Shown one piece after another: positions 2,334 to 52,215 of a DNA stretch of 64,000 bases. Below the pieces are notes generated by a model. It did not search any database. It was not told the origin of the DNA and was given only the letters and a program-made list of their open reading frames with translations. The stretch is from the UHGV virus genome UHGV-1376088; one strand, given 5' to 3'. The DNA is from a virus. A program made the translations under genes and the position numbers. The number at the start of each line of letters is the position of its first letter. Position 1 is the stretch's first letter.

Positions 2334-4292
2334 TTATCTAGATCTTGACCTCATTGTAGTTCTATACCTATTCATAAATGTAGAGGCTGTCTCTCTGGAC
2401 AGTATTCCTCTATTGCCCATAGGTCCACCAGACATAGATGAGCGTCTACTTATTCCTGGTGCAACACGAACTGTACGATGATATTTTTCTTCGTTTGCAT
2501 ATGAGCGTTTTTCTATTTCATTCGAACCATTATACGCCTCGGAACCACGCTTTTCAAGTGGCAATATTGTAATATTAGAATAACGTCTAGTGTCTAGAAT
2601 CGAATTCTCGTTTAGTTGTAATCCCGCCAATGCAATCATAAACGCATCTAAATCATGGTCGCCTATTTCGCTATTTTTAGCCTCATAGACTTCTCTGCCA
2701 TTAGCTGCTCTGGATTTTACAATATAGTTTTTCATCTGCTCTACAATAGGTGCAGATATTGGGTCCTTGAATGCAAGTAGCCCTGTTTCCAATGCGCGTT
2801 TTGTTGTTTCGACTATAAAATTCTTGAAGTATTTTTTACGAATCTCACCAGTCATTACGTCCCGAAGTTCTAATGTTGATGAGAAGTTTACTGGTACTAC
2901 ATCTCTAAGCCTTAAGTCAGGATGATCTGCAGGAACCTTTCCGAACAGATTTACTGCAATAAGTTTTAGCTGTTGAACGTTAGCCTCGCCAAATCCCTCA
3001 TCGACATAAATATAGTCTGGCGTATATAAGCGGTTTAGTTCGACAATTTTGTCTATCGCCGCTACCTGTGTCCACCCTTCTCGTCTTACATTTGATAGGT
3101 TTGCTATGATAATTTTGCGCTCAATCTTATCGTATGCAATAACACAAATACGTGTACCTACTTTGTCGGCATTCCAGTCGCATCCAAGTGAGACTATGTA
3201 TCTATTCCTATTCGTAATGACATTGTGCAGAGATTCTGATGTTCCTATTAATGTACTCCTATTTACAAGGTCGGTATCAAAAACAGAGTTATCAGACAAA
3301 CCGAATTCTGCCATAATTTCTTGAATATATGCCATCATAGACAGTGAGTTTCTAAACTCTCTATCCATGTCGTCATTATAATGAGGAATACAGAATGATG
3401 GGAAATGGAACTCCTTATAGTCTTTTGAGTTTGCAAATTTATATAGCAATCCCTCGCCCATCGGTGTTGATGTACAGATAATTTCTGTATTGGGCTTATC
3501 CATAAGAATGGCCGTAATAGAGTCGAATGCTTCTTGTGTTAAGAAGTCGGCCTCGTCAATAATGATAAGGTGGGCACCTTGTCCACGTACAGCGTTCGCG
3601 TTATCGTTACCGGCTGTAAATGCTTTGAATGTTGATCCATTCTTCATCTGTATCTCTTGATACGGAGATGTAACAGATCTCTCCACCAAATCATCCCATG
3701 TACCTATTGTGGCACTTAATGATCGTAGAATCTTTTTAACTACACTTGTAAGTTCCTTTGCTTGTGAAAGAAACGGTGTAACCACTAGAATTTGGTAATT
3801 ACTATTCTGTACAAGTCTGTTTGCGATATCAATACCAAGGCCGTATGATTTACCGGATCGGCGTCCGCATCGGATTGCTTTTTTAGAGGCCGAGCACTGA
3901 ATTTGCATAGATTGATACCAGCGATTAACATATAAACGCTTTGTAGGGTCCGGCTGATTGACATCAATGTTCTTTTCGGCCCAGTATACTGGATTCATAG
4001 CTTGTTTAATTTCTTCAAGCTCGTCGCTGTTCATATTGGCCACTATATTCTGGTCAAGAACACTGATATCTTTGGGGCCCGAACATTTTATCGTTATTTC
4101 ACCGTACTTTTTAATTTGCTCTCTTTGGCAATTTCTGCACATATTGTTAATATCTGTGTCATAATTCTTATGCTTTAGATATTCTCTCCATGGCATCTCA
4201 TATAGCTGTATAAGTGACGACGTAGGCTTTTTATCCTCGATATCATCTATATCGCTTCTGATATGGTCGGTATTTTTATCTAAATCTTCCAT
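2334..4292 (-). CDS. terL: terminase large subunit (T4 gp17-like)
   Basis: Walker A CGRRSGKS and Walker B LIIIDEADF in the N-terminal ATPase. The C-terminal half has RNase H-like nuclease acidic motifs (VDEGFGE, GDHDLDAF). Confidence 0.9.
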   Translation of the reverse strand: MEDLDKNTDHIRSDIDDIEDKKPTSSLIQLYEMPWREYLKHKNYDTDINNMCRNCQREQIKKYGEITIKCSGPKDISVLDQNIVANMNSDELEEIKQAMNPVYWAEKNIDVNQPDPTKRLYVNRWYQSMQIQCSASKKAIRCGRRSGKSYGLGIDIANRLVQNSNYQILVVTPFLSQAKELTSVVKKILRSLSATIGTWDDLVERSVTSPYQEIQMKNGSTFKAFTAGNDNANAVRGQGAHLIIIDEADFLTQEAFDSITAILMDKPNTEIICTSTPMGEGLLYKFANSKDYKEFHFPSFCIPHYNDDMDREFRNSLSMMAYIQEIMAEFGLSDNSVFDTDLVNRSTLIGTSESLHNVITNRNRYIVSLGCDWNADKVGTRICVIAYDKIERKIIIANLSNVRREGWTQVAAIDKIVELNRLYTPDYIYVDEGFGEANVQQLKLIAVNLFGKVPADHPDLRLRDVVPVNFSSTLELRDVMTGEIRKKYFKNFIVETTKRALETGLLAFKDPISAPIVEQMKNYIVKSRAANGREVYEAKNSEIGDHDLDAFMIALAGLQLNENSILDTRRYSNITILPLEKRGSEAYNGSNEIEKRSYANEEKYHRTVRVAPGISRRSSMSGGPMGNRGILSRETASTFMNRYRTTMRSRSR

Positions 4293-7091: not shown

Positions 7092-7603
7092 CCTATTTCC
7101 TTAAGTAATTTGCGGTAATCGCCATCTTTTTCGAATATCTCTTTTTCTGTGATAAATCTATATTTTGCATTGATCTTATTTTCTTTTAAAAATACAACTG
7201 CGGCTCTAGCTTTTAGTTGTACATTTATTGCCTTTTTGGCAGACGAAGGTTTTATTTCGCATAGTTCTAATCTTCCATCTGAGTATAAGACCAATGCGTC
7301 GGGGATGTAATTCCTTCTTAGCCCGGAATTGTCTGTATATGGTATCTTCATTGGCTCTACGATGTATTTTATAACACTGCTATCAGTGTCCATTCCTTTG
7401 TAGAATGCATACTCGTATAGGCTTCTATATTCGATATCCTTGCCAGCCTTAGTGGAGAAATACTTCCCTGAGCGATATCGCTTACCCTTATTGAAGTAAG
7501 CGCCATTATTTTTTATATGCTCTTCTTTTGTATGTCTGGACTTTTGTATACGTGGAGATTTATTGCGCTTAGGCTTACCACGAATCCTTTTTGAAGCTGT
7601 CAT
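7088..7603 (-). CDS. PD-(D/E)xK nuclease-like protein (possible homing/restriction-type endonuclease)
   Basis: Motif IPDALVLYSDGRLELCEIKP matches the PD..(E)xK signature. The N-terminus is basic. Confidence 0.5.
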   Translation of the reverse strand: MTASKRIRGKPKRNKSPRIQKSRHTKEEHIKNNGAYFNKGKRYRSGKYFSTKAGKDIEYRSLYEYAFYKGMDTDSSVIKYIVEPMKIPYTDNSGLRRNYIPDALVLYSDGRLELCEIKPSSAKKAINVQLKARAAVVFLKENKINAKYRFITEKEIFEKDGDYRKLLKEIG

Positions 7604-8928
7604 TTATTTGAACCATCTATTACGGACTGGTCGATAGATTTATCGACATATTTGCCACGTGTTGCGGCAGTTAACATATCAAGCTTATCTTTAAGTGACT
7701 GGCTACCGCTTCCCATACTTGCACCAGATGCTTGTACAGCGATCTTGGCTCGCTCTTTTCTTGTTGCCATCAGAGATTCTAATAATTTACTTCTTCTGTT
7801 TTTCAGTTTCTCTTTGATATTGAGATATCTTGATATGTCGTCTCTGGCGATCATATTGCCACCAGCATCGAATCCCATTAAATCTTCTTGGCTGAAATCT
7901 TGATGTGTTAATGATAGGATCTGAGTAACCCTTCTTTCATACAAGTCTATTTCAGCGAGTTCTGCAACCATTTGCATTTCTGTTGGGCTATCTGGCTGAA
8001 CGTTGAACTCTTCGAAGTATCTTTCTGTTTGGCTACGCAGATAGTCTTGCTCATAAATACATGGGGCACCTACTGGTGCCTTATTCATCTTGTAAAGCTG
8101 ACAGTTGTGGACCAATAGTCCTTCGGCAAAGAAATTGGAGTTTTTAAATACCTGGATGTCGTATACTGGGAGGACACCAACAACATCTATTGATTCAATT
8201 TTAGTAATTAAACAGTCCCCATATGAGTTGTCTTCTTCACTAAATAGGTCTTCGTATACTAGTTTACTTCCGATTGTAAGACCGTCATCAATAGATAGGA
8301 ATTTAAATTTAGAACCTCTTCCTTTTATAGCAAAGAACTGATGGTCTGACGTTGCCTTAATGCAATGGCCGTCTATGGTTCTAATTTCGTAAACTGTCTT
8401 CTCGCCGACATAGGCTGTGGCATATACCATGTCATGCTCAATACGTTTCGTCTTCGTATTGAATGATATGATTTTATCTCCGCTTTTAATTCGGTCTATT
8501 CTTACTTGTTTTCCATCGTGCATGGAGACCATGGAGTCTCCAGTTAGGCATGTCTCTTTTACCTTACAGTTTGAACCCCTACAAATCATTGGGGAGTATG
8601 TTGATATACCACCATCGGTTGATCGTCTCAAACTAGTGCTGAATGCTAACGCTTCATCTTCTGTTAGTACAATGTTTTCATACAGCTTGTCGTCTAATGA
8701 TAACGCATCTAGGTATCTAGCTCTCGTGATCTTATTATCAACAACTTTGATTCCTCTTGATGAAAACAAAATTGGAATAGATTTTGATTTAGTTTCTTGT
8801 ATCATTGAAACTGTTTTTTCAACTTCTGTTTTTGTCTTGGTTTTCTCTTTTTCTCTCATTTCATGAGCAGAGATTATACCTGCAGACAAATCGAACATTT
8901 CTTGTATTTCTTTATTTGGAATAGCCAT
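7600..8928 (-). CDS. hypothetical packaging-region protein interrupted by a Hint-domain mini-intein
   Basis: Intein block A CLTGDSMV follows an extein Thr. Terminal VHN is followed by Cys. The exteins form a Cys-rich knuckle CRGSNCKVKET/CQLYKMNKAPVGAPC. Confidence 0.7.
   Translation of the reverse strand: MAIPNKEIQEMFDLSAGIISAHEMREKEKTKTKTEVEKTVSMIQETKSKSIPILFSSRGIKVVDNKITRARYLDALSLDDKLYENIVLTEDEALAFSTSLRRSTDGGISTYSPMICRGSNCKVKETCLTGDSMVSMHDGKQVRIDRIKSGDKIISFNTKTKRIEHDMVYATAYVGEKTVYEIRTIDGHCIKATSDHQFFAIKGRGSKFKFLSIDDGLTIGSKLVYEDLFSEEDNSYGDCLITKIESIDVVGVLPVYDIQVFKNSNFFAEGLLVHNCQLYKMNKAPVGAPCIYEQDYLRSQTERYFEEFNVQPDSPTEMQMVAELAEIDLYERRVTQILSLTHQDFSQEDLMGFDAGGNMIARDDISRYLNIKEKLKNRRSKLLESLMATRKERAKIAVQASGASMGSGSQSLKDKLDMLTAATRGKYVDKSIDQSVIDGSNK
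8104..8550 (-). mobile_element. mini-intein (about 149 aa, no endonuclease domain) inside CDS 7600-8928
   Basis: Residues 127-275 run from Cys1 (CLTGDS) to the C-terminal HN, with +1 Cys. The size fits a Hint-only intein. Confidence 0.65.
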
Positions 8929-10164
8929 TAACTAATTATCCTGAGTCAAATTATTATTATTATATTCTTACCATGCTATACTTAAATAAACAGAACGGAA
9001 ATATATGCAGGTAGTAGTCTCGTATAATCTAGGTAGAATTCAAATTTCTATTTTACTATCGAATAATTTAGTATAGGCTAAATCATGGTCATAGGCAATA
9101 ACCGGATATATGACCCTAGAAGCTAACTCTGGTAGTGTAACCACGATTTAGCAGAACATCTCTAAAAAGCTTCCATAGTATACTTCCAATACAGGAAGCA
9201 GTAAATATTATTTGCTTAAGTAAGTTTCTTTTGCAAATAAAACAGGAGGTAGCACCAAGCTACCTCCAAGTATTATCTAATTAATTGTAGACTACAACAA
9301 GCTTAAGTAAGTATCCTAAGCTTATGTTCGTTTCCTCTATTGGTAACTTAGGGCTGCGGTAGCAGCCTATGTATTATCTACATTACTTATGATTATATTT
9401 TCTTGTATTGAAGGGCCGGGGCCGCGTGACAGCGGCCATCTATTATAGACTGAATTTATTTTATTTTAGATAAATAATAGATACAGTTAGGCCTAACCAA
9501 AACAAGCGGCTTGATAAATATAACCCGATCTAGCCATGTTGTATAACGTAGATGTCTTACTGATATAACTCTAATTGTAAGAGAGCTATATCCTAGGCTT
9601 TTTCTTTACCCATCTTGACCCTCCATGGAAACCACGGACCGTTAATACTTCCATTTGTAGTCATGCTATTTAGCATCATCTTGTAGCTCAATATGCTATC
9701 TCTACAAGACCAGAGATGTTTCATCTTCCCATGTGGCCGATTAGTATCGGTTACAATCCACTGCATAACAGGAAATTTATTTATACTCGCCACCTCTCGT
9801 ATTGCTTTGATATTTCAGGGAGTTTACGCTACTTCAACAACGAGTTTTCGATCGACTCCTTCGGTTAGGCTTGCCCACATCTAGGAGTTTCATTACTGCT
9901 TCGTCCGACCTCGCCTCTCGAGGTTATTTAGATTTTCATCTAAGACTAGTTCACAGTAAGATGATGTCTCTTGAAGGCCGGATGCCGTAGATTATCCCGA
10001 CTCAGCTTGTCCAGTCATCAACATCATGACCGTTATTATACGGATTTTTGACACAAATGTCAAGAACTATTTTAAAAATTTACATTCAAAAATTAGTATG
10101 GTGTACATATATTTTATATTTTTATAAGTGCTTGATTACAAACAGAATAAAGATTGTAAAAAAC

Positions 10165-13957: not shown

Positions 13958-14523
13958 AACAAATCACTTTCTAAAAAGCTTTTTAAAAATCTGAATCAAT
14001 AGACACAAGAGAGGGAGCGACCCTCCCTGTAGAAACAATTAGAACAGAAACAATAGAAAAAGTCAACTAACTATCCTTTGAAAATAGACAAATTTTAAAA
14101 CGGCCGGCCCGACAAAACACAAAACACCACACCCCATTAATTCATGCCCCCTGGGGCAAACCAAGGGGGATAGTTGACCCAAAACACAGAATGGCCCGGC
14201 GCGGCGGACCCATCATTTTGCCGAAGGCAAAGACTGATTGGGGGTTGGTTGAATGGGAAGTGAGAATGGATGACTGAAGTAGACGTGAAACTTGAGGTGT
14301 GTGGATGTGTGAGTGAGGATGTGTGTGATAATGCGTGTGGATCAAATAAAAATATGAAATGAATTGTTTTGAGTAATGGTTGATGTAATGCGTGTGGGTA
14401 CCTGGTGTCTATTAATGATATCCCTGTGGATGGGGGTATGTCCGGGATTTGCCCCCTGGGGTGGAATGGACTGCTCTCATCTACATCTTTTATTTTATTC
14501 TTTAGTCTAAGAAAGGACTTACC

Positions 14524-15136: not shown

Positions 15137-18100
15137 ATGTCAACTATCACTTTCAAAACCTTCACTTCTACTGTCAACGAAAAAGCTGCTGCTTCTTACG
15201 AAGCTGCTAAAGCTAATTTTGAGCACACCGCCAATATTAAGGCTGGCGTTCATAAAGTGCCAGGTGTTGAGGTTGTTGCTTTATCTAGTAGCAAAGCGGC
15301 CGCAATGAAGCCAGAAGTAGTGGCTATCGTTAAAGATGGGGCCGCTGTAGCAGTCAAAGAAGTGGGCTCTCGTTTAGAAGCCTTGGCATGGGCTAATGCA
15401 GAAGTAGAGGCTATTGTTTTGAATGAAGTAAAGGAGACTGAAATGTCTTATAGTTTTGAAGTAGAAGGTGTACCTACAATGGTACAACGTGTAGAGACCG
15501 TTAAAGCCGGTAAAACTCCTACCAAAGAGGAGCTGAATAATCTCAAAGATTGGGCTCGTACTATTTGTAAGATCAAGGCTGGTGAGGCCTTGCCTATTGT
15601 AGGCAAAGTGGAGATCAATATTAGACGTCCAAGCAAAGGTAGTGTAAGGGTAGTTGCACAACGTGGGACTTTGGCTACATCTTTGGTAAATTCCCCGCTT
15701 GGCCGCGAAACTATCGCCCGCCACGCATTTGTCTCTTACAAAGATGGCATCGTATCTGTCACTGAAAGTATTGAGACCCTTATTGACTGGATGGCCGGTA
15801 TTAACACCGAAGGCGTCAAATTGGTTGATGCTCTCAAACGTAAGAGCGGCGGTGTCGTTGTTGTTAAATCTGAAAAACCTGCTCCTAAGGGCGTTAAGGT
15901 TCAACAAGGTGATCTCCTGAATATCTCACCTGACACATCTTGGAAGCTCGGCATGCCGGTTAGTGATGCCATGTTTATTAGCCGCAAGGCGCCAAACTCT
16001 ATGGTTGCTGTTAACCATCCTCAATTAGCTGGTAAATATATCAGCGTATATGACGTGAAGAAAGCCATTGCACGTGGCATTCTGAATCCAGACTTGGACA
16101 CTAAAGTCTCCATTGGGGTTCGTAAGGTGGCAGTTCTTTTATCCGTTACTAATGAGGCTGGCGACAAAGTTAAATCTCTGGCTGATGTTAAAGATCATCC
16201 TCTGGCCATGAACTTTGCTGGCGGTGCTTGTTATGGCCGCAAGTCTTTGATTCAACAGTACGGTAAAATGCGTGTTGTTAGCTTTCATCATCTGAAAGGT
16301 GTAGTTACCAACGTTAGAGAGATCGATGCATTGGTCGACTACCTTGATGTAGACATCATCTCTCCTATGCTGAAATCCAAAGCTGTCGGTGTTACACATG
16401 CGATCATGGGTGGTGATCTAGCTGACTTTATGTTGCGTCTGCTGGAGGATGAAAGTTTCCGTGCATCTGCCAATGCGGCTATTGCGATGAATAGCAAATC
16501 TGTCAATGTTGACGGTTTGGTTTATGAGTTCGCAATTATTGAGGAAGAGATTTACGTCTCTGACTTCTACACACTGCAGGGTCATCGTCGAGTCGGTTCT
16601 GAAATCACCGTTAATGATAAAATCAACGGTGTTGAGGTAGAAGCACCTGAGCAAACTCTGATGAATGAGCTCTTATCTGAGCTCAAAGGTGGTAATACTA
16701 CCTACTCTCCAGTGGTTCGTATTCTGGAAATGAAACGAGCCGGCTTAGTTGAAGCAGTGTCCCACTCTGCTGAGGGCGGCGTATTGTTGGCGGATCAGAT
16801 GATTCGTCAATACGGTGAATCTCTGTTCAAGTCTTTCATTTCCGGCCGTACCGGTAAACGTACTGCCAAAGCAGTTGCAGCTGCCAAGAACGTGGATTGG
16901 TCTTGTACCGCCAACGAGTTCTTAGCTATGACTCGTACTTGGTACTCTGATAAGTTTGCTGTGATGTTTGCTGGTAATGGTTCATTATCAGTTGAACAAG
17001 TGAAATATACCGCTCTTGTTGGTGACGAAACTTCTCAGTACATCATGAAGCAATTCCTGGTTAACCTGTTTAACGGTTATGGCAAATTCCCTGGATTATT
17101 GAATATGCCTCGTGGTTTTGAAATCAAAGCTGGTGATCACAGCTTCGTGTTCCCGGGCTCTAGCTTCTGGGATAAACCTGAGACTATTACTGGTGATCAC
17201 GTATCTGGTCTTCAGTTCACTGGTGGAGACTTCTTCAAGTCTCTGGCCTCTATTATCCTGATGGCAAAAACTCGTGGCACTAAGACCTGGGAAGCCGCTG
17301 GTGTTATCAAAACGCACGCCAAGCATTTACTGGCTATTGAAGAAACCTTTGGTTCTCACAAGGGCTTAAAATTCAGCTTGCCTAAAGGTCGTAGCTTGCC
17401 AGTATCTTACCACTTTGAAAATGGGCTCAAAGTTATCACTGCGGATCGTAGCTATAAGGAGGCTGCAAAACGTGGTGAAGTGGGCGCTATTAAGTTCCCT
17501 ATCTTGATGGAAAACAATTTCCGTCTGTATGAGACCGAGGTTAAAACTCTGATGAGCTTTGACTCTGATGCCGAGCTTGAGCTGAACCGCTTTATCTGCG
17601 AATCAGTAGTATTCGTAGATGCATTGTCTCATATGAGCAACCGTGATGATGCGGATGGTGACCGCTTGACATTGTTCTGGGCTAAAGGTTATGAAGGCCA
17701 AGAGCAATGGAGCGAGGATAAACTGTTGGCATGTAACTCTGCCAAACAACAGCTCTCTTATGTGGAAGACGAACTGGGTTCTCTTAACACCAAAGAGATC
17801 AATGAGCGCTCTGTTCAAGTTTGGGGCAAAGAAGATGTTCAGCCTGCTGTCGAAGAAATCGTAGCTGCTAAGACTGGTGTGGGTAGCGAGACTAATAATC
17901 TTATTACATTGACCCATTTAATCCGTAACAAACTGGGCTATTCTAATATGGCCAACTTGGCTATTGATGCTATGGGTATCTTGCTGCAGAAGGAAGTTGT
18001 GGAAAATATGAAGCATAGCAACGGCAACGTTCGCTTCTGCGAATATTTAAACCTGCGCAACAAGGAGACTGATCTAGACTGCATGTCTGAGGCATTCGAG

Positions 18101-18547
18101 AAGGCTTTCGAATTGATGTTCATCGAAGATTACGTAATGGCGTTTGAAATTGCCAAAGTCTTTGTTGAGCTGTTCGAAGAAGACAAACGTTCTCGTGGTC
18201 AGCAAGGCTACCGTTGGAATAAAACCAACGCAGTTCGTATGGCACACACTGCGACTTGGAAAAATGTACACTTCGATGTGTACACTAAGGATGTGTCTGA
18301 GATTTATAACACATCATTCTTCTTTGGCCTGGACGATGTAAAATCCGTCAACAATTTGCTTGACATGAATGGCAAATCACCATTCAGTTTTATCCTGAAG
18401 GCTTTGAGCCGCGAAGTCTTGGCACAGAAACTCGTTATCGCCGAGACCAAAGCCGCTGAAGCTGAAGCGTTGGCCAATGGTGAGACTGTTGAAGCTGAGT
18501 CTTATCATGAGGTTGTAGATATGGACGAAGCTATTGATATGCTGTAA
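15137..18547 (+). CDS. giant protein P1 (1136 aa) with SHMSNRDDADGD motif; paralog of 32742-36185
   Basis: Single uninterrupted ORF with strongly optimised codons. The DxDGD and VGSETNN motifs are shared with P2. Confidence 0.85.
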   Translation: MSTITFKTFTSTVNEKAAASYEAAKANFEHTANIKAGVHKVPGVEVVALSSSKAAAMKPEVVAIVKDGAAVAVKEVGSRLEALAWANAEVEAIVLNEVKETEMSYSFEVEGVPTMVQRVETVKAGKTPTKEELNNLKDWARTICKIKAGEALPIVGKVEINIRRPSKGSVRVVAQRGTLATSLVNSPLGRETIARHAFVSYKDGIVSVTESIETLIDWMAGINTEGVKLVDALKRKSGGVVVVKSEKPAPKGVKVQQGDLLNISPDTSWKLGMPVSDAMFISRKAPNSMVAVNHPQLAGKYISVYDVKKAIARGILNPDLDTKVSIGVRKVAVLLSVTNEAGDKVKSLADVKDHPLAMNFAGGACYGRKSLIQQYGKMRVVSFHHLKGVVTNVREIDALVDYLDVDIISPMLKSKAVGVTHAIMGGDLADFMLRLLEDESFRASANAAIAMNSKSVNVDGLVYEFAIIEEEIYVSDFYTLQGHRRVGSEITVNDKINGVEVEAPEQTLMNELLSELKGGNTTYSPVVRILEMKRAGLVEAVSHSAEGGVLLADQMIRQYGESLFKSFISGRTGKRTAKAVAAAKNVDWSCTANEFLAMTRTWYSDKFAVMFAGNGSLSVEQVKYTALVGDETSQYIMKQFLVNLFNGYGKFPGLLNMPRGFEIKAGDHSFVFPGSSFWDKPETITGDHVSGLQFTGGDFFKSLASIILMAKTRGTKTWEAAGVIKTHAKHLLAIEETFGSHKGLKFSLPKGRSLPVSYHFENGLKVITADRSYKEAAKRGEVGAIKFPILMENNFRLYETEVKTLMSFDSDAELELNRFICESVVFVDALSHMSNRDDADGDRLTLFWAKGYEGQEQWSEDKLLACNSAKQQLSYVEDELGSLNTKEINERSVQVWGKEDVQPAVEEIVAAKTGVGSETNNLITLTHLIRNKLGYSNMANLAIDAMGILLQKEVVENMKHSNGNVRFCEYLNLRNKETDLDCMSEAFEKAFELMFIEDYVMAFEIAKVFVELFEEDKRSRGQQGYRWNKTNAVRMAHTATWKNVHFDVYTKDVSEIYNTSFFFGLDDVKSVNNLLDMNGKSPFSFILKALSREVLAQKLVIAETKAAEAEALANGETVEAESYHEVVDMDEAIDML

Positions 18548-22861: not shown

Positions 22862-24241
22862 ATGACTATGAATCAAATCGAAACTGGCAACCTGAACACC
22901 GGCCGTAGCAAATTCCACAGCGTTTCTGGCCAAGTTGCAACTCCAATGGCATCAAGCCGCCGCACCTTTTACGTCTTGGACGCTCGTCCAGATGAAGCAG
23001 AAGCATTGGGCTATCGTGTATTCGTGTACAAACTGATGCATATGATTGCAAATGCCCCTATGTCTCGCGGTAATGGCCGTGCTTGCTGGGTAGCTACCAA
23101 TGCCGACGATGGTGTGCAATACACTGAAGGTATGACTACGAACCAAATCGTAGCAGCCGTCCGTAATGCAAATGCCAATGCAATGGAATTCTTGGACGCT
23201 GGTTTCAACGGTCTGAGCATCCAAAACGGCAAATTGGCACACTTCCCGGTACCAGTAGGTCCAGCATTTGGTCCAGAATGGTATGAGAAAGCAAACGGTT
23301 TGGCACTGAAAGCTCTGAGTCTGTCTAAAGGCTACGAAGCTTTGTTGTCTGGCTCTGCGTTCATCAGCCACGACAAGAACATTGTTACCGCCAACGAAAA
23401 AGACGGCGAGCGTGTTCAGTTCACCGAACAACAGCTGGCCGAAATGATGGCCAAGATTGTAGGTGCATACAAAGCCGAAATCAAACGCCTCGTTGACGCA
23501 GGTGCAATCGCCACTTCGACTGCTATCTATGTTGGTGCAAACGGCCTGAGCCCTTGTATTGTCCCAATTGCAGCAGCCAGCTACAAAGTAAATAGCAACG
23601 GCAAGCAAATTGACGTCCGTACTACACCTCGTGCATACGGCCGTGTCTCTCCAAACTTCTGTCTGACTATTACTGGTCAAGCCGAAATCACCACTTTGGA
23701 GCAAGACGAATTGCATGAAGGCTATTTGGCTGGTGTCCAAGTGACTGAGGGTAACAATCCTACCCAATACTGCCGCAAGTTCGTGAACTTCAAGGACAGC
23801 CGTGGCAACGATATTACTGTACGTGCAGTAATGTACAGCAACGGTAATAACGGCCGTGGACAAACCCGCGCCGAAGCCTTTGAAAATGTCAGCACCAACG
23901 CCGATGAAATCATGTTCACCGAGAACAATGTGTTAGGCTTTGAAAGCCGCACTCCTCGTGAAGACGATGAAACCGGTCAACCATGGGTAGTTACAGCACG
24001 TGTAACCATGGACGGTTATATTGTTAGCCGTAACGAAGCAGGTAGCACTGCTGTTGTTGCAGACATTGACGTTGACGCACTCGATGTAGACGGTCTGGAC
24101 TTGGGCGACGTGGACATCTTCGCAGATACTGCTAAAGTAGAAGCTGAGAAACCTGCTGCAGCCAAAGAAACCAAACGCACTCGTCGTGGTCAAGCTCAAC
24201 AAGCTCCGGCTAACGAAGAGAGCGACGATACTCCGTTCTAA
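22862..24241 (+). CDS. abundant early protein with SSB-like acidic C-terminal tip (...ESDDTPF)
   Basis: 459 aa with highly optimised codons. The C-terminal DD-T-PF resembles the SSB partner-binding tip. Candidate ssDNA-binding or replication-factory protein. Confidence 0.75.
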   Translation: MTMNQIETGNLNTGRSKFHSVSGQVATPMASSRRTFYVLDARPDEAEALGYRVFVYKLMHMIANAPMSRGNGRACWVATNADDGVQYTEGMTTNQIVAAVRNANANAMEFLDAGFNGLSIQNGKLAHFPVPVGPAFGPEWYEKANGLALKALSLSKGYEALLSGSAFISHDKNIVTANEKDGERVQFTEQQLAEMMAKIVGAYKAEIKRLVDAGAIATSTAIYVGANGLSPCIVPIAAASYKVNSNGKQIDVRTTPRAYGRVSPNFCLTITGQAEITTLEQDELHEGYLAGVQVTEGNNPTQYCRKFVNFKDSRGNDITVRAVMYSNGNNGRGQTRAEAFENVSTNADEIMFTENNVLGFESRTPREDDETGQPWVVTARVTMDGYIVSRNEAGSTAVVADIDVDALDVDGLDLGDVDIFADTAKVEAEKPAAAKETKRTRRGQAQQAPANEESDDTPF

Positions 24242-24355
24242 TAGAGCCAGATACGGGCGAGCGTAAGCGAGCCCCTATTTGAAGTCCACTTGAATGCTGG
24301 TGTGCATGTATTTGTGCACCAGTATTTTTTGTCTTTTATGACTGGTTGACGTGTT

Positions 24356-24375
24356 GTGTCGGTCCCTTTTTATAG
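24356..24375 (+). promoter_or_regulatory. GTGTCGGT-N7-TATAG box
   Basis: Copy 9, in the ORF-free region. Confidence 0.4.
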
Positions 24376-24491
24376 GGATTTAGCTTTCAAATGATTGACT
24401 GGTTGACTGTGTTTTTGATGTGTATACGGACATACAATATAGACGGGCGCGGCTATCTTTGTGCTGGATAACAGCCCAAACAGCTATAATA

Positions 24492-24509
24492 GTGTCGGTT
24501 ATACTACGG
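24492..24509 (+). promoter_or_regulatory. GTGTCGGT-N5-TACGG box
   Basis: Copy 10, in the ORF-free region. Confidence 0.4.
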
Positions 24510-25011
24510 TACGTGTAATATATTAATGAACAGCTTAAAACGTTTTATATGGCTAAGGGAGCAACCTTATCTAAGTTGTTGATTTATATAGATACAGGAT
24601 ATTCGTTCAAAAGTAAACAATAGGCTAAAATTAAGCCTAAAATAGAGGTATCTAGCGCCGCAGAAAGGCTAATATAGGCAAGAATCATAGCAATAGAGCT
24701 TATATAATAGATAGTATAAGCTAAAATAGGTCTATAATGGACATATAGGCATATAATAGAGGCATGTAATATATTAATAATAGGCCCAGATGTGCTTTAT
24801 ATTCCTTGGGAGCATTTTATACTAAGTCCTTGATTTATATAGAGGCAAGATATTTGTTCAGGAATGAACAATAGGCTAAAATATGGTCCGATTTAAGCAA
24901 AAATATACAATATAACCGTAAAAATAGGTCATTTTGCATGAAAAGTGGCTTCAAATGAGAATAATTCCTAAAGTATCATTTTCTCCTATAGCGGATACCG
25001 ACCTCTGAAAA

Positions 25012-25029
25012 GTGTCGGTTATTTTACGG
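25012..25029 (+). promoter_or_regulatory. GTGTCGGT-N5-TACGG box
   Basis: Copy 11. Confidence 0.4.
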
Positions 25030-25969
25030 TGAATATAGTCTAAGCAGTCAATATAGACAGTAATAGACGGTCAATATAGACAGGACGGGCGCGTCCTTGT
25101 ATTGATTAAAAGCATAAATAACACCAATAAAACCACCAATACAAACATCACAAGCACAAACAATAATACTACTACAATAGGTAATACAATACATACTATA
25201 TACAAGTATAGCAGGTATAATAAGCACAAATCCAATGCAACTATATAGGCTAAGGTGTATCTATATGTGCATAAGATACGGGCTGTAGTCCAGGTACCGC
25301 AGACTATATTAAGTGCATTCATCTATTATTGTCTCTATTGGTCAAATCTTAGAGACAAGGGTTTGATGGACTGGACTTCCAGGTAATTTAGCCTATATTG
25401 TTGTAATACGGTCCGTATTTTAGGTAATGCAGTCTATATTAAAATGTCTAGACCTGTAAACAAGTGTCCAGACGTATATTTGGTTTATATAAGTGCAAAC
25501 CTATAAATAGGTGTCTAAGTTCTTATTAATAGTTATATCTGTATTAGAGTCTATATTGGTACTTATGTATTTGTGTGCATAAGTTCTTATATGTTCTTTA
25601 TGCTTCTATTGGTATATTTGTTTTTTATTGTATTGGATTCTATTCTATTTTTATTTTATATGGGAGTGTATTTGTATTTATGGTTGAGTCTATTTTGTTT
25701 TGGTTTGTTGTTTATTTTTTAGTTGTTATATTCTTTATGTTTGTATTTGCTTTTAAGGATTGTTCTGATGAATGAATATGGTTGGGTTGTTGCTTTTGTT
25801 GTTTGTATTTTGTTTATTATTGCTTTTATGGATGTTTGATTTTTGCATCTATCTTTGTTTTTGAAGTTTTTTATTTTGGTTATTTTGGCCAATAAAAGAA
25901 TAATGGGCCCGGCGGGCCTTGTTTTATGTTGCACTAACCGTTTTTAAGCCCCTATGAAAAATCGATTTA

Positions 25970-25987
25970 GTGTCGGTTTTTCTATGG
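25970..25987 (+). promoter_or_regulatory. GTGTCGGT-N5-TATGG box
   Basis: Copy 12, about 25 bp upstream of the 26011 gene. Confidence 0.5.
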
Positions 25988-26010
25988 TAAATATTATATA
26001 GGGAGTTATC

Positions 26011-26352
26011 ATGATTTCTATGATATTGTTTGGCTCTGCTATTACTTCTTTAGCTATATTGTCTATTCTTGCTAAGAGTAATGTAGACCTTTTATATAAG
26101 GTTTTGGGTTATGAAGCCTATGTAGATCTTTGTTTTTCCTTGATTATTGGTTTTGCTTGTGGTATTAGTGGTACTATGTCCGGCTTTGTTATCGGCGCGG
26201 CGACCGGTCTTATCTTTGGTACTTGCCTGTTCCTTCTGAAGAAGATGATCGGCTATAAAAAGTATGAAAATAAGACTTGGGTTTACTATCCTGCTAAGTG
26301 GCCTATTGGTGATTTATTCAAAAATATGTATTCTAAGTATGAATACATCTAA
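26011..26352 (+). CDS. membrane protein
   Basis: 113 aa with 3 predicted TM helices. Confidence 0.5.
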   Translation: MISMILFGSAITSLAILSILAKSNVDLLYKVLGYEAYVDLCFSLIIGFACGISGTMSGFVIGAATGLIFGTCLFLLKKMIGYKKYENKTWVYYPAKWPIGDLFKNMYSKYEYI

Positions 26353-32741: not shown

Positions 32742-35700
32742 ATGCATTTAAGAATTTCAAATGGACAAATTCCTGTAATCAATAAAAATTATACACCATC
32801 AGAAGTCTATGCAATCTTTCGAGAGCATTTGACAACAGAGGGACGTATTGAATTTGAATTGAAGCCAGATACTTTTGGATTCAAAGTGATCAACGTTATT
32901 AATGATAAGACTGTTGAAACGGAATTTATTATTCCTGAATCGTTCTTTAATCCTAAGAATCATTGGCCTCATTTTGCTTTCTGTTCGCGTCATATCAATA
33001 AACGGGCGTCAATCGAAGTAATTAACCATTTTGAAATGCTGTTCTTCTTCTTGGCTGAACGATTTGAAGATGCCTTGAAGAACAATGAAATCTTTACGAC
33101 TTATATCCGCCGGGACATTAAGCTGATTACAAACTTTGTTGAGTATGTCAGCCCCAATGCTTTTAATGCAAATTTGAAGTCTTCTAACCTTTTGGTTTTA
33201 TGGGCTCCTTATAGCACCAATACCGGCACTTCTTTGGTTTATAAGAATCGCAATCTTCCTATTGGCGATTTGGTACACCAGCGTGTAATTACAAGCCCTG
33301 ATAAAGAAGCTATTACTGCTATGGCGAATTGCTTCAACTTAATGCCTGGTTCAGAAACTATGTTGTCTGAAAGCAATAAAATTGTTGTTTCAGATGGTAA
33401 TGCAGAAATTTCTTGTGCTGGCTTTGGGTTTGAATATGATAACGATGACCGTATCGTTGGCTTCTCGTCTATCTTTCCTCGGGCTTCTGCTTTGCCTGCC
33501 CGTTTGAAAACCCATGTAAATGGTAACCATTTTGGTGTATTACAACCCGCCAAACCTTTGTTTATTGAAGATGCGGCTATCAATCCAGATGGCTCTTTTG
33601 TCTTTGATGAAAATGGCGACCATGTTCCTTTGGACAATGGCGGCTTAGACGCTATTGTTGTTTATCAGGATATCGATTTTGAAAGCTATCATCAAGTCGG
33701 CGGCGACTTAGAAGTAAACCGTCGAATTGGTAATCAAATCGTATTTATGAATCGCCATAAGGAAACGGAATTTGACGAAATCCTTGTCGAAGAGGGCGAA
33801 ACATACAACGCAAGAAATGGATGTGTAATCCTGGGCATGTTTGACCGTCGACCGATTTCGGTAGACAATGTTGTCAAAATTGAAGTAACCAAAGTTTCTC
33901 AGAACGGTTATAACAATTCTGCCCGTATTGATTTCGTAGCATACTATAAAGTAGGTAATTCTCGAATCACTTCTCATACCGGCTTAAAAGGCGTCACCAA
34001 AACCATGATGACTTGTGGTAATATCTACTCCGATGATTTCGAAATGGAAGTCGATATTCTTACAGGTGTCAATAGTATTAAGGCCAAAGAGAATACTGTA
34101 CGTCTTATGCAAGCAGCTTTTGCATTAAAGTATGGTTATTATACTCCTACGTCTGGTGATAAGCTTCTTTCGTCTATGGACGAGGAAGAAATTAATGCCG
34201 CCGCCCGATCTATTCCAGAAGTAACATTCAAAATGGTTCGTGAGGGCAAGGAAGTCGAGTTCAAAACCCGACTGTATGGTGTGATTCAAATCAACTATAC
34301 CGAAATCGGTAGTCACTTTACAGTTGTAAGAAATCAAAAATTGAGCTTCAATGCTTTGCGTTATATCTCTCAGACTAAAGATTCTGGATTGGCGCAATAT
34401 ATATTGGACAATTGTATTGACCCAGATGAAAAATCAGCTGTAATTGAGCTGATGAAGTGTCTTAATGATAAGACGCGCCGTTTTGTGTCTGCTGAGCATA
34501 AACCTGTTTATACATTAAGCGGTTTAAAGAATCATTTCACTGAAAAGGATTTGATTCTTGAACATAGTTCTATCTTCCCATTGTACTCTAAGCTTCTTGA
34601 TGAAGACTTTAATAAAGGCTTCTATATCAATCTTAGTGAACAGCGTCAGAATACATTAGTACGTATTCCAGATGCTAAAACTTTGGGTATGTTCTGCAGT
34701 AAGCAAACCAATGGCGAATATGTCTATCCTGGCATTCTTATTGAGGTTTCTAAAATCATTCAGAATGCTTTGCTTGGTAAGGCTTATTACTATCGGATTA
34801 TTCCGAGTCGTAATGAGAGCAACCAAAACCGTGTAAGCACTTATGGCAATTATATGGCATCCTTGAAGTCTATGTTGTATTCTTCAGAGATTTCAGGACA
34901 GACACTGATTCAGACTATGATTACACCACGATTGCGCGGCGTAAATATGAAACAAATGCACGACGTATACGTCCCAGATGGCGTTGTCGTTGTATTGAAC
35001 AATCGTATTTATACCGACTTGCATGAATATGTCTATCCAACCAAAAACTTGCCGGTTGAACAAGGCATTATTCAAGCCTTTAAAGACCTGTATGCGTTCA
35101 CATTACGTTCACCGTTTTTGTGGAAAACGCAACTGTTGATTAAAGAATTGTGGGACGCAAACAAATTCGACACTTATCTTAAGCAAGAATATGGTTTTGC
35201 GCTGGAAGATTATCTGGACATCAAATCCAATTTACATTGTGCATTGATTGGCAAGGACGTAATCAAAGGCAGCCATTCCGATATTGACGGCGACTTGTTG
35301 CAGATTACCGTATTGCCAGAAGAAGCTCAGCAAATGATGAAGGAATTCAAACTTAGCAACATTACCGATAAGATGTACCAGTGGGATGAAGATTTCTTGC
35401 AGTCAGAATACGATAGCATTAAGAAATTGGATTGGACTAAGAAGTATAAGTTGCACTATACTCCTACCTACTGTAAGCGTCCCGGCGATGAAAGCTACAT
35501 CGATTTGATCACAAACTCTGCTAATGCCAAGAAGGCCGTTGGTCCAGGTACCAACAACAGCTGGCAATTTGGTATGCTGATTGAACTTTATTTGGCACTG
35601 CTGAATGAAGATTCTGATCTTACCTATCGCGCTATTTCCGGTAAAACAGGAAAAGAATTTGTTAAGATTCATCTTAATGAAAAGCTTGCCCAAGAGTGTG

Positions 35701-36185
35701 ACCATGTATATACCGAAACCAATGAACGGTATGTGATTAATGCCATCAAGCATATTAAGGGCGGTGCAACTCAACATCAGAAGTTTATGTTGGGTACTCT
35801 TGGTTCTGACCAAACAGTCCATAAAGAAGTAGTAGAAGCGATTGTGAATGAAATGGGATATAGCCGAGAAACAGCTATGACCATTATCAATATTGCTATT
35901 TGGGCTGATCAACACAATCTTATTAAGCTTACTGGAGATTTCCTTCGTATGCATAATAAAGGTCAAACTGTTGATAACAATGGCGAACCTATTGACTTGA
36001 AAGACCCTGAAATCTCTAAATGGTTTAACCTGATTGTAGAGAAAACATTTGTGGGCAAAATGATTAAGCCCGCATTTGATGTATACAATCAGTGTATTGG
36101 TCAACTTGATATCGAGCAAAAAGCATCAGATAGCCAAAACAATGCGGCAGAAGACAAAGAAGATATTGATATCGATTTCCTTTAA
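32742..36185 (+). CDS. giant protein P2 (1147 aa) with SHSDIDGD motif; paralog of 15137-18547
   Basis: Single ORF with AT-rich codons. It shares SH.S..DxDGD.L and VG.G.TNN with P1. Confidence 0.85.
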   Translation: MHLRISNGQIPVINKNYTPSEVYAIFREHLTTEGRIEFELKPDTFGFKVINVINDKTVETEFIIPESFFNPKNHWPHFAFCSRHINKRASIEVINHFEMLFFFLAERFEDALKNNEIFTTYIRRDIKLITNFVEYVSPNAFNANLKSSNLLVLWAPYSTNTGTSLVYKNRNLPIGDLVHQRVITSPDKEAITAMANCFNLMPGSETMLSESNKIVVSDGNAEISCAGFGFEYDNDDRIVGFSSIFPRASALPARLKTHVNGNHFGVLQPAKPLFIEDAAINPDGSFVFDENGDHVPLDNGGLDAIVVYQDIDFESYHQVGGDLEVNRRIGNQIVFMNRHKETEFDEILVEEGETYNARNGCVILGMFDRRPISVDNVVKIEVTKVSQNGYNNSARIDFVAYYKVGNSRITSHTGLKGVTKTMMTCGNIYSDDFEMEVDILTGVNSIKAKENTVRLMQAAFALKYGYYTPTSGDKLLSSMDEEEINAAARSIPEVTFKMVREGKEVEFKTRLYGVIQINYTEIGSHFTVVRNQKLSFNALRYISQTKDSGLAQYILDNCIDPDEKSAVIELMKCLNDKTRRFVSAEHKPVYTLSGLKNHFTEKDLILEHSSIFPLYSKLLDEDFNKGFYINLSEQRQNTLVRIPDAKTLGMFCSKQTNGEYVYPGILIEVSKIIQNALLGKAYYYRIIPSRNESNQNRVSTYGNYMASLKSMLYSSEISGQTLIQTMITPRLRGVNMKQMHDVYVPDGVVVVLNNRIYTDLHEYVYPTKNLPVEQGIIQAFKDLYAFTLRSPFLWKTQLLIKELWDANKFDTYLKQEYGFALEDYLDIKSNLHCALIGKDVIKGSHSDIDGDLLQITVLPEEAQQMMKEFKLSNITDKMYQWDEDFLQSEYDSIKKLDWTKKYKLHYTPTYCKRPGDESYIDLITNSANAKKAVGPGTNNSWQFGMLIELYLALLNEDSDLTYRAISGKTGKEFVKIHLNEKLAQECDHVYTETNERYVINAIKHIKGGATQHQKFMLGTLGSDQTVHKEVVEAIVNEMGYSRETAMTIINIAIWADQHNLIKLTGDFLRMHNKGQTVDNNGEPIDLKDPEISKWFNLIVEKTFVGKMIKPAFDVYNQCIGQLDIEQKASDSQNNAAEDKEDIDIDFL

Positions 36186-46948: not shown

Positions 46949-48217
46949 ATGGAAAATATTTATCAAGTGGCAAATGGTGTCGTTAAGTTCGACAAGGATA
47001 TTGACCCTAATCTTTACAAAAAGAATTTGCCTGCCGGCTTTTATACAACGGCCTCATCCAGAGAGAGTGTATTCTTGAAGCAAACCGAACCTTTGACAAT
47101 TCCATCTAAGGTTTATGGCGATTCGACTGATCGTATGAATCGAATTGTTAAGTCTTTTGAAGCTTCCAATAAGAATCTTGGCGTGCTGCTTTATGGTGAA
47201 TCCGGTTCCGGTAAATCTCTATTGGCTAAACAAGTTTGCATTAAACTTTCAGAAGAATATCCGATTATTATTGTGTTGCCAGAGCATATCGATATCATTG
47301 AAAAATTCATTGAAAATATTGATGACCGATGTGTATTTTTCATTGATGAATTTGAAAAGATGTTTGAAAAGCCATCATATCAAAGCGGACTGTTGAGCGT
47401 TATTGATGGAACAAGTTCTAAAAAGAATTTATTCTTGTTCACAGCTAATGAAAAAGGCATGATTAATAAGTTCTTCTTTAATCGCCCGGGACGTATTCGT
47501 TATGCTTACGAATATGATACCTTGCCGGATTCTGTTGTTTTAGAAGTTCTGGAAGATATTCTGGATAATAAAGGTAAGGTAAAAGAAATTGCATCTATTA
47601 TCTCCTATCTGAAGGAACCATCATTCGATGTTGTTTGCAGTATTGCGCAAGAAGCAAATTTATATCCAGATTTTACTATTCAGCAGTTGATGGATGGATA
47701 TAACTCAGAGATCTACTCTGAAAGCTTAATGCATTCCGACTGTACATTATTTATAAATGGGCAAGATTTTTATTCGGCATTCAAAGAATTGTTCTCAAAA
47801 TACGGTTTAAATCTTCAAGATTGCAATCCGTCCTATATTGCCAGTGAATCTGCAATTGAATTGAAAGAACAATCTTTAAATCCGTACGAGCCAAAAACAT
47901 CACTGAATGTAATAGACTATTCTATGCGGGCATTTTGTGATGGTGCCAAACGGAGTTACATTATATGTATATACCTCGATATTTCGAAAATGGAATTAGA
48001 GGTTAAGGATAGAACCTCTATTATTAGCAATGTTCGAATTTCTGAAGAGGAAATCGGTAGCACTGCAGAAATGATCCTGCACTTAATGCAAACTCTGAAT
48101 AAAGAGGTTCCGGATTCTGTAAAAGAAGAAGTGTATAATATTCTCAGTTCAAATGATGTGAAATTGGTAAGTAAGCCTGCACAAAAGCTGAAGATTAATA
48201 CATTTGGCCGTTTTTAG
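46949..48217 (+). CDS. AAA+ ATPase
   Basis: Walker A GESGSGKS and Walker B VFFIDEFEK. Confidence 0.6.
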   Translation: MENIYQVANGVVKFDKDIDPNLYKKNLPAGFYTTASSRESVFLKQTEPLTIPSKVYGDSTDRMNRIVKSFEASNKNLGVLLYGESGSGKSLLAKQVCIKLSEEYPIIIVLPEHIDIIEKFIENIDDRCVFFIDEFEKMFEKPSYQSGLLSVIDGTSSKKNLFLFTANEKGMINKFFFNRPGRIRYAYEYDTLPDSVVLEVLEDILDNKGKVKEIASIISYLKEPSFDVVCSIAQEANLYPDFTIQQLMDGYNSEIYSESLMHSDCTLFINGQDFYSAFKELFSKYGLNLQDCNPSYIASESAIELKEQSLNPYEPKTSLNVIDYSMRAFCDGAKRSYIICIYLDISKMELEVKDRTSIISNVRISEEEIGSTAEMILHLMQTLNKEVPDSVKEEVYNILSSNDVKLVSKPAQKLKINTFGRF

Positions 48218-48273
48218 TTGAAATAATGAGCCCCGGGTTTATATCTCGGGGCTTATAATATTGGAGGTAAAAA

Positions 48274-49009: not shown

Positions 49010-49028
49010 GAAATAAAAGGAGTTCATT

Positions 49029-52210: not shown

Positions 52211-52215
52211 TATAT

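Follow-up and report, generated by a model that had tools for sequence, protein, structure and literature searches.

Organization of the Gap and Its Conservation in Related Phages

The stretch of DNA analyzed here (the window) comprises 64,000 nucleotides (nt) of the virus genome UHGV-1376088, a large phage of about 185 kb of which the window carries a part. Between the stop codon of an open reading frame (ORF) of 459 amino acids (aa; 22862–24241) and the ATG of a 113-aa ORF (26011–26352), a membrane-protein gene, lies a gap of 1769 nt (24242–26010); among the ORF-poor gaps of the window that have no annotated RNA gene, it is the largest. A first reading of the letters alone (the original prediction) had described it as 1.7 kb free of ORFs, organized like a replication origin or a long noncoding or leader transcript. 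The gap proved to be real, but two conserved micro-ORFs were found within its T-rich part, and on balance we favor its being a conserved, length-hypervariable region of control elements and small genes in a plus-strand block between two giant genes. The elements observed are listed in Table 1.

Twenty-five related loci from viral and metagenome collections yielded 13 distinct versions of the gap (loci and lineages are designated by L-numbers). The gap was present in 13/13 distinct relatives, bounded by the same two genes, with lengths from 1219 to 2775 nt; all homologues of the 459-aa protein were close (at least 71% identity). Three strains with flanking genes 96–99% identical had gaps of 1769, 1666, and 1367 nt, which differed by whole modules. 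Eight of the 25 related contigs ended within the gap, as expected from a repeat-rich, polymorphic stretch. The order of the blocks (A/C-rich tract, T-rich tract, GC hairpin, box, membrane gene) was the same in every lineage, and the same layout was found in a relative whose polymerase is just 46% identical. Searches of isolated phages gave no match for the gap region (Megablast) or for the 459-aa protein (tblastn), and the clade appears to be known from metagenomes alone. For the flanking ORFs, and for the long ones listed inside the gap at 25071–25322 (minus strand) and 25575–25775 (plus strand), no informative match came from PHROGs or Pfam.

The window has a GC content of 38%, and large parts of the region one of 23–33%; a coding-type composition can explain the low-GC tracts (see below). 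A terminator scan located eight terminator-like sites in the region where 1.0 was expected. A sigma-70 promoter scan of the region showed no enrichment (10 sites against 10.7 expected), nor did GTAATGCAG as a genome-wide promoter motif (14 against 14.9).

Table 1. Elements observed in the gap between the 459-aa and 113-aa ORFs (positions in the window).
Element	Position	Strand	Characteristics
Conserved hairpin GGGCGAGC-GTAA-GCGAGCCCC	24255–24275	+	Immediately after the 459-aa stop; near-invariant in 10/10 aligned sequences
Strong intrinsic terminator	24292–24337	+	15-pair stem then TTTTGTCTTTT; terminator scan; ends the 459-aa transcript
Box 1	24356–24375	+	Variant with tail CCCTTTTTATAGG; right behind a strong terminator
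Box 2	24492–24511	+	GTGTCGGTTATACTACGG; without upstream hairpin arm
Tandem 251-bp duplication	24514–24764 and 24765–25015	+	Repeat families D1 and D20, spacing 251; nhmmer copies
IHF-consensus site, copy a	24571–24592	+	CTAAGTTGTTGATTTATATAGA; core of a ~115-nt conserved element (24535–24650)
IHF-consensus site, copy b	24822–24843	+	CTAAGTCCTTGATTTATATAGA; core of the element at 24786–24900
Box 3	24995–25031	+	Upstream complementary arm (ATACCGAC...GTCGGTTAT) and T-rich tail
Two quasi-palindromic GTCAATATAGACAG repeats	25047–25083	+	23 bp spacing; family D19
A/C-rich tract	25048–25260	-	Open minus-strand frame with hydrophobic-type codons (...IGGFIGVIYAFNQYKDAPV...)
GC-clamped stem-loop, 16 bp	25069–25107	+	Second GTCAATATAGACAG repeat pairs with conserved TTGTATTGATT; tip GGACG/CGTCC
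Central repeat- and palindrome-rich part	25261–25559		22-nt repeats TYYAGGTAATKYAGNCTATATT at 25289, 25378, and 25419, plus CTGGACTTCCAG and GTCTAGAC; families D4, D6, and I18
Shine-Dalgarno GGGAG of micro-ORF A	25662–25666	+	Conserved in aligned relatives (L007: GGGGG)
Micro-ORF A	25680–25775	+	31 aa, MVESILFWFVVYFLVVIFFMFVFAFKDCSDE; one transmembrane segment, acidic tail
Micro-ORF B	25768–25839	+	23 aa, MNEYGWVVAFVVCILFIIAFMDV; Shine-Dalgarno AAGGA at 25755–25759; one transmembrane segment
Strong intrinsic terminator	25905–25929	+	GGGCCCGGCGGGCC then TTGTTTTATGT; terminator scan; follows the micro-ORFs
Box 4	25970–25989	+	41 nt upstream of the 113-aa membrane-protein ATG (26011)

Two Micro-ORFs in the T-Rich Tract

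The stretch of 25560–25900 had been reported as depleted of C on the plus strand, and this was borne out: C amounts to 5.6% and T to 58%, with a local GC skew of +0.48 to +0.70 and an AT skew of -0.5 to -0.6. The ORFs listed there had been set aside as low-complexity artefacts. That judgment holds for the one at 25719 (minus strand) but not for the one at 25575, whose last 31 codons correspond to conserved micro-ORF A. A second frame, micro-ORF B, follows it, with its start overlapping the stop of A (ATGAATGA).

The start, the length, and the DCSDE tail of micro-ORF A were conserved among lineages whose flanking genes are about 83% identical to those of the window. In an alignment of six lineages both micro-ORFs were free of insertions and deletions, and their flanks carried indels of 1, 6, and 10 nt. 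One such change, a 6-nt deletion in L012 and L013, puts the Shine-Dalgarno sequence of micro-ORF A 7 nt from its ATG. Micro-ORF B kept its length through synonymous changes (GAA/GAG, TTG/TTA, and GTT/GTA) and swaps of its stop codon between TGA and TAA; substitutions in the micro-ORFs were conservative, with zero to three second-position changes per pair. In L002 an in-frame deletion of 75 nt fuses micro-ORF A to B, and the lineages L001 and L003 have analogous micro-ORFs, with a Shine-Dalgarno sequence and an ATG, at the same place. Gene callers had annotated a 31-aa product in L312 and L313 (MVVSILFWFIVYFLLVMFFMFVFAIKDCSDE and MVYAILFWFVVYFLVVVFFMFIFAFKDCSDE). The coding signature observed for both micro-ORFs thus comprises Shine-Dalgarno sites, start and stop codons, absence of frame-breaking indels, and substitutions that preserve the protein. 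On these grounds the T-rich part reads as coding for two small proteins.

The two micropeptides can be compared with known small proteins. Small hydrophobic proteins of bacteria and phages, such as type I toxins and regulatory membrane micro-proteins, are 20–50 aa long. Like the type I toxins Ibs, TisB, Fst, and Hok and the membrane micro-proteins MgtS, AcrZ, and KdpF, the predicted products (23–31 aa) have a single transmembrane segment and short polar ends, and their genes are of the kind that ORF-length filters miss; in addition, the opposite strand carries a hydrophobic frame (see below), and antisense transcription is possible. They differ from those systems in showing no similarity to named families (a PHROGs scan of the enclosing 66-aa ORF gave none) and in being two translationally coupled ORFs with ordinary Shine-Dalgarno sites.

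A possible third micro-ORF was noticed downstream of box 1 (MIDWLTVFLMCIRTYNIDGRGYLCAG, 24391–24471, plus strand). Its ATG is kept, and its first eight residues vary conservatively in L007-type relatives (MVELLILF...). We do not claim it as a gene, since neither a Shine-Dalgarno site nor its length is conserved.

A Codon-Periodic Minus-Strand Frame in the A/C-Rich Tract

The 160 nt at 25100–25260 had been called A/C-rich and nearly free of G and T. Overall this was not the case (A 49%, C 19%, G 10%, and T 22%), but a core at 25105–25175 is indeed poor in G (G 3%, T 15%). The minus-strand ORF listed at 25071 was rightly considered an artefact insofar as its frame is the wrong one; a different minus-strand frame through the tract is strongly codon-periodic, with a chi-square for 3-nt periodicity of 28.9 against 5.9 in shuffles. 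In this frame T occupies 44% of the second and 74% of the third codon positions, resembling the membrane gene at 26011–26352. The phase of the frame relative to a conserved anchor, AATCAATAC, was held in 10 of 12 lineages, and the indels seen in the tract among close strains (+3, -3, and -12) are multiples of three; both the periodicity and the indels look like those of a sequence coding for a hydrophobic protein. The tract would be either an antisense gene for a small membrane protein or a relic of one, and the frame may be translated.

These findings bear on the switch in strand composition noted in the original prediction. The two tracts are real, but the switch is a codon-usage effect and not a signature of replication or of a structural RNA: in this phage the codons of membrane proteins are rich in T at second and third positions, and in the two tracts they lie on opposite strands. 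One and the same codon usage thus gives two patches that mirror each other.

A Recurrent Box Between Two Giant Genes and a Predicted Two-Barrel RNA Polymerase

Four GTGTCGGT boxes had been pointed out in the gap. All four were present (at 24356, 24492, 25012, and 25970), but they are not particular to this region: GTGTCGGT followed by a T-tract occurs 15 times in the window against 0.5 expected, in 15/15 cases on the plus strand, between 18641 and 32692, and each box lies 35–70 nt upstream of a start codon. From 176 distinct copies in relatives the consensus tGTGTCGGTTnTTTTATGG was derived, with no conservation outside it; the box is an 18-nt motif, GTGTCGGT-TnTTTTAYGG.

An upstream arm able to form a hairpin with GTGTCGGT accompanies 114 of the 176 copies, and the box is kept without a hairpin in the other 62. 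G–T wobbles are abundant in the stem (at position 2, for instance, 67 wobble against 35 Watson–Crick pairs), which means that the hairpin can exist only in plus-strand RNA. With the U-tract that follows, it has the make-up of an intrinsic terminator. A role as terminator only is unlikely, since it would leave unexplained the invariant 3' arm, the copies lacking a hairpin, and the positions of boxes 1 and 4, which are located directly downstream of strong, unrelated terminators; box 1, right behind one of them, would be redundant if it were a terminator alone. A phage-specific promoter whose upstream half has often been recruited as a terminator arm would account for all three features. It is therefore probable that the boxes combine promoters of the phage with terminator hairpins formed in the RNA.

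Every box of the window falls between two giant genes, 15137–18547 and 32742–36185 (both on the plus strand), each coding for a protein of about 1140 aa. An AlphaFold model of the 32742–36185 product (1147 aa; pLDDT 83.6, pTM 0.79) had as its best structural matches RNA polymerase beta/Rpb2, QDE-1, RDR2, and the gp66 polymerase of the crAss-like phage phi14:2 (probability 1.0, E = 2e-6), with P74 gp62 likewise among the matches. According to this model the protein would be a single-chain two-barrel RNA polymerase. Sequence comparison of the 1147-aa protein gave no Pfam, PHROG, or PDB match, and a sequence search against solved structures found nothing for either giant protein. The 15137–18547 product (1136 aa) has the same DxDGD, AKxxVGxxTNN, and KHxxG motifs, with a weak profile match.

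The box has the traits expected of a phage-specific promoter, as a conserved coding-strand motif that closely precedes numerous genes and whose phage encodes a predicted RNA polymerase. In the early regions of T7-like, N4, phiKZ-like, and crAss-like phages the small genes are each served by a promoter specific to the phage, and here too a one-strand motif precedes many small genes beside polymerase genes. Association of a hairpin with the motif recalls N4, where, however, a DNA hairpin of the template strand is involved, whereas the wobble-rich hairpin described here is workable only in plus-strand RNA, as a terminator. The putative promoters described here are further set apart in that one-third of the boxes are devoid of a hairpin and in that the predicted polymerase is a single-chain two-barrel enzyme instead of a T7-like one.

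A Duplicated Module Around an IHF-Type Site

Between boxes 2 and 3 the gap is occupied by an A-rich module of 251 bp in tandem duplication, present in one or two copies in relatives (one in L013). The unit of 24492–25012 showed no coding signal and no 3-nt periodicity, and the ~115-nt element repeated in it has no conserved fold (consensus energy of just -1.8 kcal/mol for 13 copies). Alignment of 13 module copies revealed an invariant core, CTAAGTnnTTGATTTATATAGA, which on the opposite strand reads TCTATATAAATCAAnnACTTAG. The published consensus for the DNA-bending protein IHF is WATCAANNNNTTR (PMC1874591). Exact matches to it were found on the minus strand in both copies of the module, AATCAACAACTTA at 24572–24584 and AATCAAGGACTTA at 24823–24835, each preceded by A/T-rich TCTATATA. 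One or two of these sites occur in every lineage, always in the plus orientation.

The core belongs to a 22-mer of the form (C/G)TAAGT(C/T)ATTGATTTATATAGA that is widely distributed. Exact matches numbered 66 in viral contigs, in 44 unrelated contexts of 26–67% GC, and a scrambled control gave none. When the first two N positions were freed, at least 125 unrelated viral contexts were obtained, in which these positions were still G in 82% and T in 86%. The 22-mer was intergenic in 74 of 77 testable instances, with ORFs about 200 nt off on each side and no orientation bias to the flanking genes, and in other phages no neighbor gene was shared, the largest cluster consisting of five loci. In Vibrio phage 1.105.O (MG592477) it is located in a divergent intergenic region with many CGTGTCATC iterons, beside a DUF3987 gene, and in Escherichia phage BME3 in the noncoding start, among Fur-box-like sequences. 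Bacterial genomes contained at least 120 matches, nearly all of them in Pseudomonadota and especially in Comamonadaceae. Some of the bacterial copies abut the 3' ends of tRNA genes, a likeness to the arms of attachment sites. As a separate observation, the sequence recurring in Comamonadaceae extends beyond the 22-mer and has a second TTGATTTATAAGG in it.

The 22-mer is best read as a site that IHF, or a factor closely equivalent to it, would bind with high affinity, as judged from its sequence and distribution. Known IHF sites include those of lambda attP (H') and cos and of the pSC101 and R6K origins. With the IHF sites of phages, plasmids, and integrative elements the 22-mer shares an exact consensus, an A/T-rich flank, an intergenic and orientation-free location, and occurrence mostly in Pseudomonadota and their phages. 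In lambda H' the A/T-rich part lies about one helical turn from WATCAA, whereas here it directly abuts it; in addition, the shared 22-mer of the presumed IHF site is far more specific than the published consensus.

Hairpins, Terminators, and Central Repeats

Two hairpins, one of them a clear terminator, end the upstream 459-aa gene. The stem of the terminator (24292–24337) is maintained in L001 and L018 via changes on both arms. The hairpin at 24255–24275 has a GUAA (GNRA-type) tetraloop and tandem G–A/A–G mismatches, and its conservation goes beyond what a plain terminator would need.

The two GC-rich palindromes reported earlier, GGACGGGCGCGTCC (25082–25097) and GGGCCCGGCGGGCC (25905–25919), were both present and scored as terminator-like hairpins. 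In the terminator at 25905–25929, to which the second belongs, the stem is retained in L013 and L024 through changes of both arms (CCGGCGG to CCGCCGG). The first is part of the GC-clamped stem-loop at 25069–25107. Analysis of seven relatives with RNAalifold gave 16 pairs, none of them broken; five sequences with a one-sided change keep the pair by wobble, and these wobbles are possible on the plus strand only. The fold had a z-score of -3.8. The extended GC stem was restricted to W-type lineages, and TGTATTGATT was found in every lineage examined. Together with the IHF-type core and a 38-nt block at 24953–24990, the hairpin followed by TGTATTGATT remained about 89% identical where its surroundings had diverged beyond alignment.

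The GTCAATATAGACAG duplicate of the original prediction was recovered at 25047 and 25070. These copies provide two quasi-palindromic GTCAATATAGAC sites downstream of box 3 that look like operators. The CTATATT-type motifs were likewise confirmed, at about 25304, 25393, 25433, and 25550. More generally, ATATAG[AGT]C is concentrated in the region, with 11 of the 21 copies of the window (6.2/kb against 0.16/kb outside, about 39-fold), on the plus strand up to 25243 and on the minus strand from 25309. AATATAGAC occurs in seven copies against 0.8 expected, five of them in the region; a copy was also noted at 14693 (minus strand). Parts of the central region (25261–25559) are lacking in L012 and L013. 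It is a possible divergent promoter/operator region.

An Interpretation of the Gap and Its Alternatives

Taken together, the elements suggest the following arrangement. The conserved hairpin and the strong intrinsic terminator would end the 459-aa gene. The four boxes, most likely promoters of the phage two-barrel RNA polymerase, would divide the region into short plus-strand transcription units, and in about two-thirds of the copies the upstream arm would make an RNA hairpin with a U-tract that terminates the preceding unit. The unit of 24492–25012 would be noncoding and consist of the duplicated 251-bp module around a site for the host protein IHF. The next unit, starting at 25012, would carry the two operator-like GTCAATATAGAC sites followed by the GC-clamped hairpin; the A/C-rich tract would represent a series of hydrophobic codons seen from the opposite strand (antisense gene or relic), separated by the central repeats from the translationally coupled micro-ORFs of 31 and 23 aa, which would form the conserved core of the T-rich, C-poor tract and be followed by a strong terminator. 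Of the leader or long noncoding transcript proposed originally, this retains a noncoding part (24492–25012); the boxes split the region into short units, and the T-rich part is coding.

Several points weigh against this arrangement. What the analysis shows are the elements with their statistics and conservation and the coding signature of the micro-ORFs; the promoter role of the boxes, the binding of IHF, translation of the minus-strand frame, and the role of the peptides are what we infer. The 22-mer exceeds the IHF consensus in specificity, so that another factor could be the binder. The noncoding module of 24492–25012 is kept in every lineage, which the arrangement leaves without explanation. 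The micro-ORFs of L001 and L003 differ in sequence from those of the window, L018 shows a frame difference, and micro-ORF A was not called in the assembly nearest to the window. The minus-strand frame has neither a Shine-Dalgarno (GGAG-type) site nor a start codon common to the relatives, was annotated by no gene caller, passes through the GC hairpin, and is frameshifted in L005 and L009.

A replication origin, as originally proposed, received no direct support from skew, repeats, DnaA boxes, or neighboring genes, and we regard it as unlikely that 24400–25300 or the whole region serves as the origin of the phage. In that case the ATATAGNC/GTCAATATAGAC repeats would be binding sites for a phage initiator, with IHF bending the DNA. 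The unwinding element would consist of the GC-clamped hairpin and the A-rich tract next to it (with A at every third base), and the boxes might supply transcription that activates or primes initiation. The existence of a large conserved noncoding region, the clustering of hairpins, and the presence of an IHF-consensus site in every lineage would fit such a role, as would two TTATGCACA sites at 25266 and 25574. The low GC content of much of the region would suit an unwinding element, but a coding-type composition accounts for it too. However, cumulative GC skew rises monotonically through 24–26 kb without an inflection at the region, and its minimum is located at about 13–14 kb, at the switch of gene strand (as computed for the 64 kb of the window, out of a genome of ~185 kb). 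The window shows no enrichment of DnaA-box-like sites, and L007 and L024 have not kept the two that lie in the region. The ~39-fold enrichment of ATATAG[AGT]C also speaks for an origin, but the spacing of the copies is irregular (17–235 nt) and their polarity mixed, and the lineage of L003, L004, and L005 has none; no regular, helically phased array of at least three repeats conserved in relatives was found. The copy number of the IHF module varies among near-identical strains, a variation hard to square with an origin of precise geometry.

The 3-nt periodic A tract, in register with the conserved GC hairpin in 10/12 lineages, could be taken as a further argument for an origin, its layout recalling the arrangement of DnaA box, GC cluster, and DnaA-trio in bacterial origins. 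Against this, the composition of the tract at all three codon positions is that found in a real membrane gene, a likeness not required of an unwinding element. We consider improbable a more specific version, in which 24400–25300 would be an IHF-assisted origin or nucleoprotein assembly site with a greatly extended DnaA-trio-like track: about 50 consecutive A-first triplets in fixed register beside the GC-clamped hairpin and short direct repeats, onto which, as single-stranded DNA, a filament-forming phage protein would load, the resemblance to hydrophobic codons being incidental. By analogy, the iteron-type region of Vibrio phage 1.105.O may also point to an origin, as it combines the same 22-mer with clustered short repeats and A/T-rich DNA in a large intergenic setting. 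Its repeats, however, are regular 9-mers flanking the site on both sides, beside a replication-type DUF3987 gene, whereas in the gap the spacing is irregular, the repeats are absent in one lineage, and no replication gene was recognized among the neighboring ORFs scanned. On skew grounds, a better origin candidate is the intergenic region at the strand switch (13958–14523), which coincides with the skew minimum. This region was also seen to pass from A/C-rich DNA through a GC cluster (GGCCCGGCGCGGCGGACCC) to G/T-rich DNA.

Another idea, that the region consists for the most part of small membrane-protein genes in decay and of promoter/terminator cassettes left by duplication, the two live micro-ORFs alone having a function, appears to us to have little chance of being correct. 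It draws on the many indels and the duplication or loss of modules among near-identical strains, on a minus-strand frame that is coding-like yet start-less and frameshifted in some lineages, and on the variation of the micro-ORFs among lineages. Decay is difficult to reconcile with a module order preserved in every lineage including the distant relative, with the three blocks of about 89% identity in diverged sequence, and with the maintenance of minus-strand periodicity and register in 10/12 lineages.

Even more doubtful is a single long plus-strand RNA (about 25020–25925) folded as a giant hairpin, with the A/C-rich tract as its 5' arm and the G/U-rich tract as its 3' arm, which would either serve as a structured noncoding RNA or, as a cis-antisense lock, keep the hydrophobic micro-ORFs from being translated. 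The fold of 25000–25960 is indeed stable on the plus strand (-243.6 kcal/mol, z = -6.4, against -183.9 kcal/mol on the minus strand), its predicted helices pair 25108–25251 collinearly with 25687–25827, exactly the region of micro-ORFs A and B, and the succession of A/C-rich and G/T-rich tracts is kept in all lineages. Arms of the same lineage, however, paired no better than arms of different lineages, by either duplex energy or alignment score. This lack of lineage-specific pairing indicated that the complementarity stems from composition; it offers no evidence for selection on a structure. Moreover, the Shine-Dalgarno sequences lie outside the predicted pairing, and the GC-clamped hairpin at 25069–25107 may stop most transcripts ahead of the A/C-rich arm. 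No Rfam family was detected, even at E = 5 (just a chance miRNA match, and none at gathering thresholds); neither a covarying fold nor a known family was found for a structured noncoding RNA, local hairpins alone being supported. An invertible segment bounded by the inverted repeats 25049–25065 and 25542–25558 was rejected, given the same orientation in 13/13 assemblies and no invertase gene seen, and a pac site was judged unlikely, with the large-terminase gene about 20 kb away.

Other Features of the Phage Genome

Genes of the window run on the minus strand until about 13.9 kb and on the plus strand thereafter. The large terminase (2334–4292, minus strand) is of the T4 type and 41% identical to that of the Acinetobacter jumbo phage ME3. 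An intein (Hint) domain is part of a 442-aa ORF (7600–8928, minus strand). At 9663–10027 (minus strand) there is a full-length HOLDH RNA (Rfam RF02997, 377 bits), and between it and the next gene lies an IHF-like site, ATAAGTGCTTGATTA (10124–10138); literature searches on "HOLDH" and on the motif sequence retrieved nothing relevant. The phage encodes a YadA-like trimeric autotransporter adhesin of 597 aa (39083–40876, plus strand), which points to a Gram-negative host. A cluster of RNA-biology genes (45249–57894) comprises a methionyl-tRNA synthetase (45249–46913), a Ro60-type vWA-domain protein (50287–51882), and the 14 tRNA genes of the window, one of which (54075–54148) has an odd anticodon loop. 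In a related 186-kb phage (L309), a gene-free gap of 1.65 kb contains, at about 7500–7800, a tRNA-like 3' end (GGACGCGGGTTCGACTCCCGCCAGCTCCACCA) and a short frame, ANDNVYMVRAAA, followed by a stop; taken together, these look like a phage-encoded tmRNA.

Discussion

The gap combines elements whose kinds are known, within a phage that is otherwise novel. It does not overturn current understanding, being an ordinary object in an unusual phage. Its analysis indicates that tiny hydrophobic genes missed by ORF-length filters can produce extreme patches of strand composition in "noncoding" phage DNA.

More unusual than the region itself is what accompanies it, namely the genes for the predicted two-barrel polymerases with their candidate promoter, and the widely shared 22-mer. 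The motif GTGTCGGT-TnTTTTAYGG is a candidate promoter/terminator signal for an uncharacterized single-chain two-barrel RNA polymerase. The 22-nt IHF-type sequence, reused in many unrelated phages and in Pseudomonadota, may mark regulatory, origin, or attachment regions.

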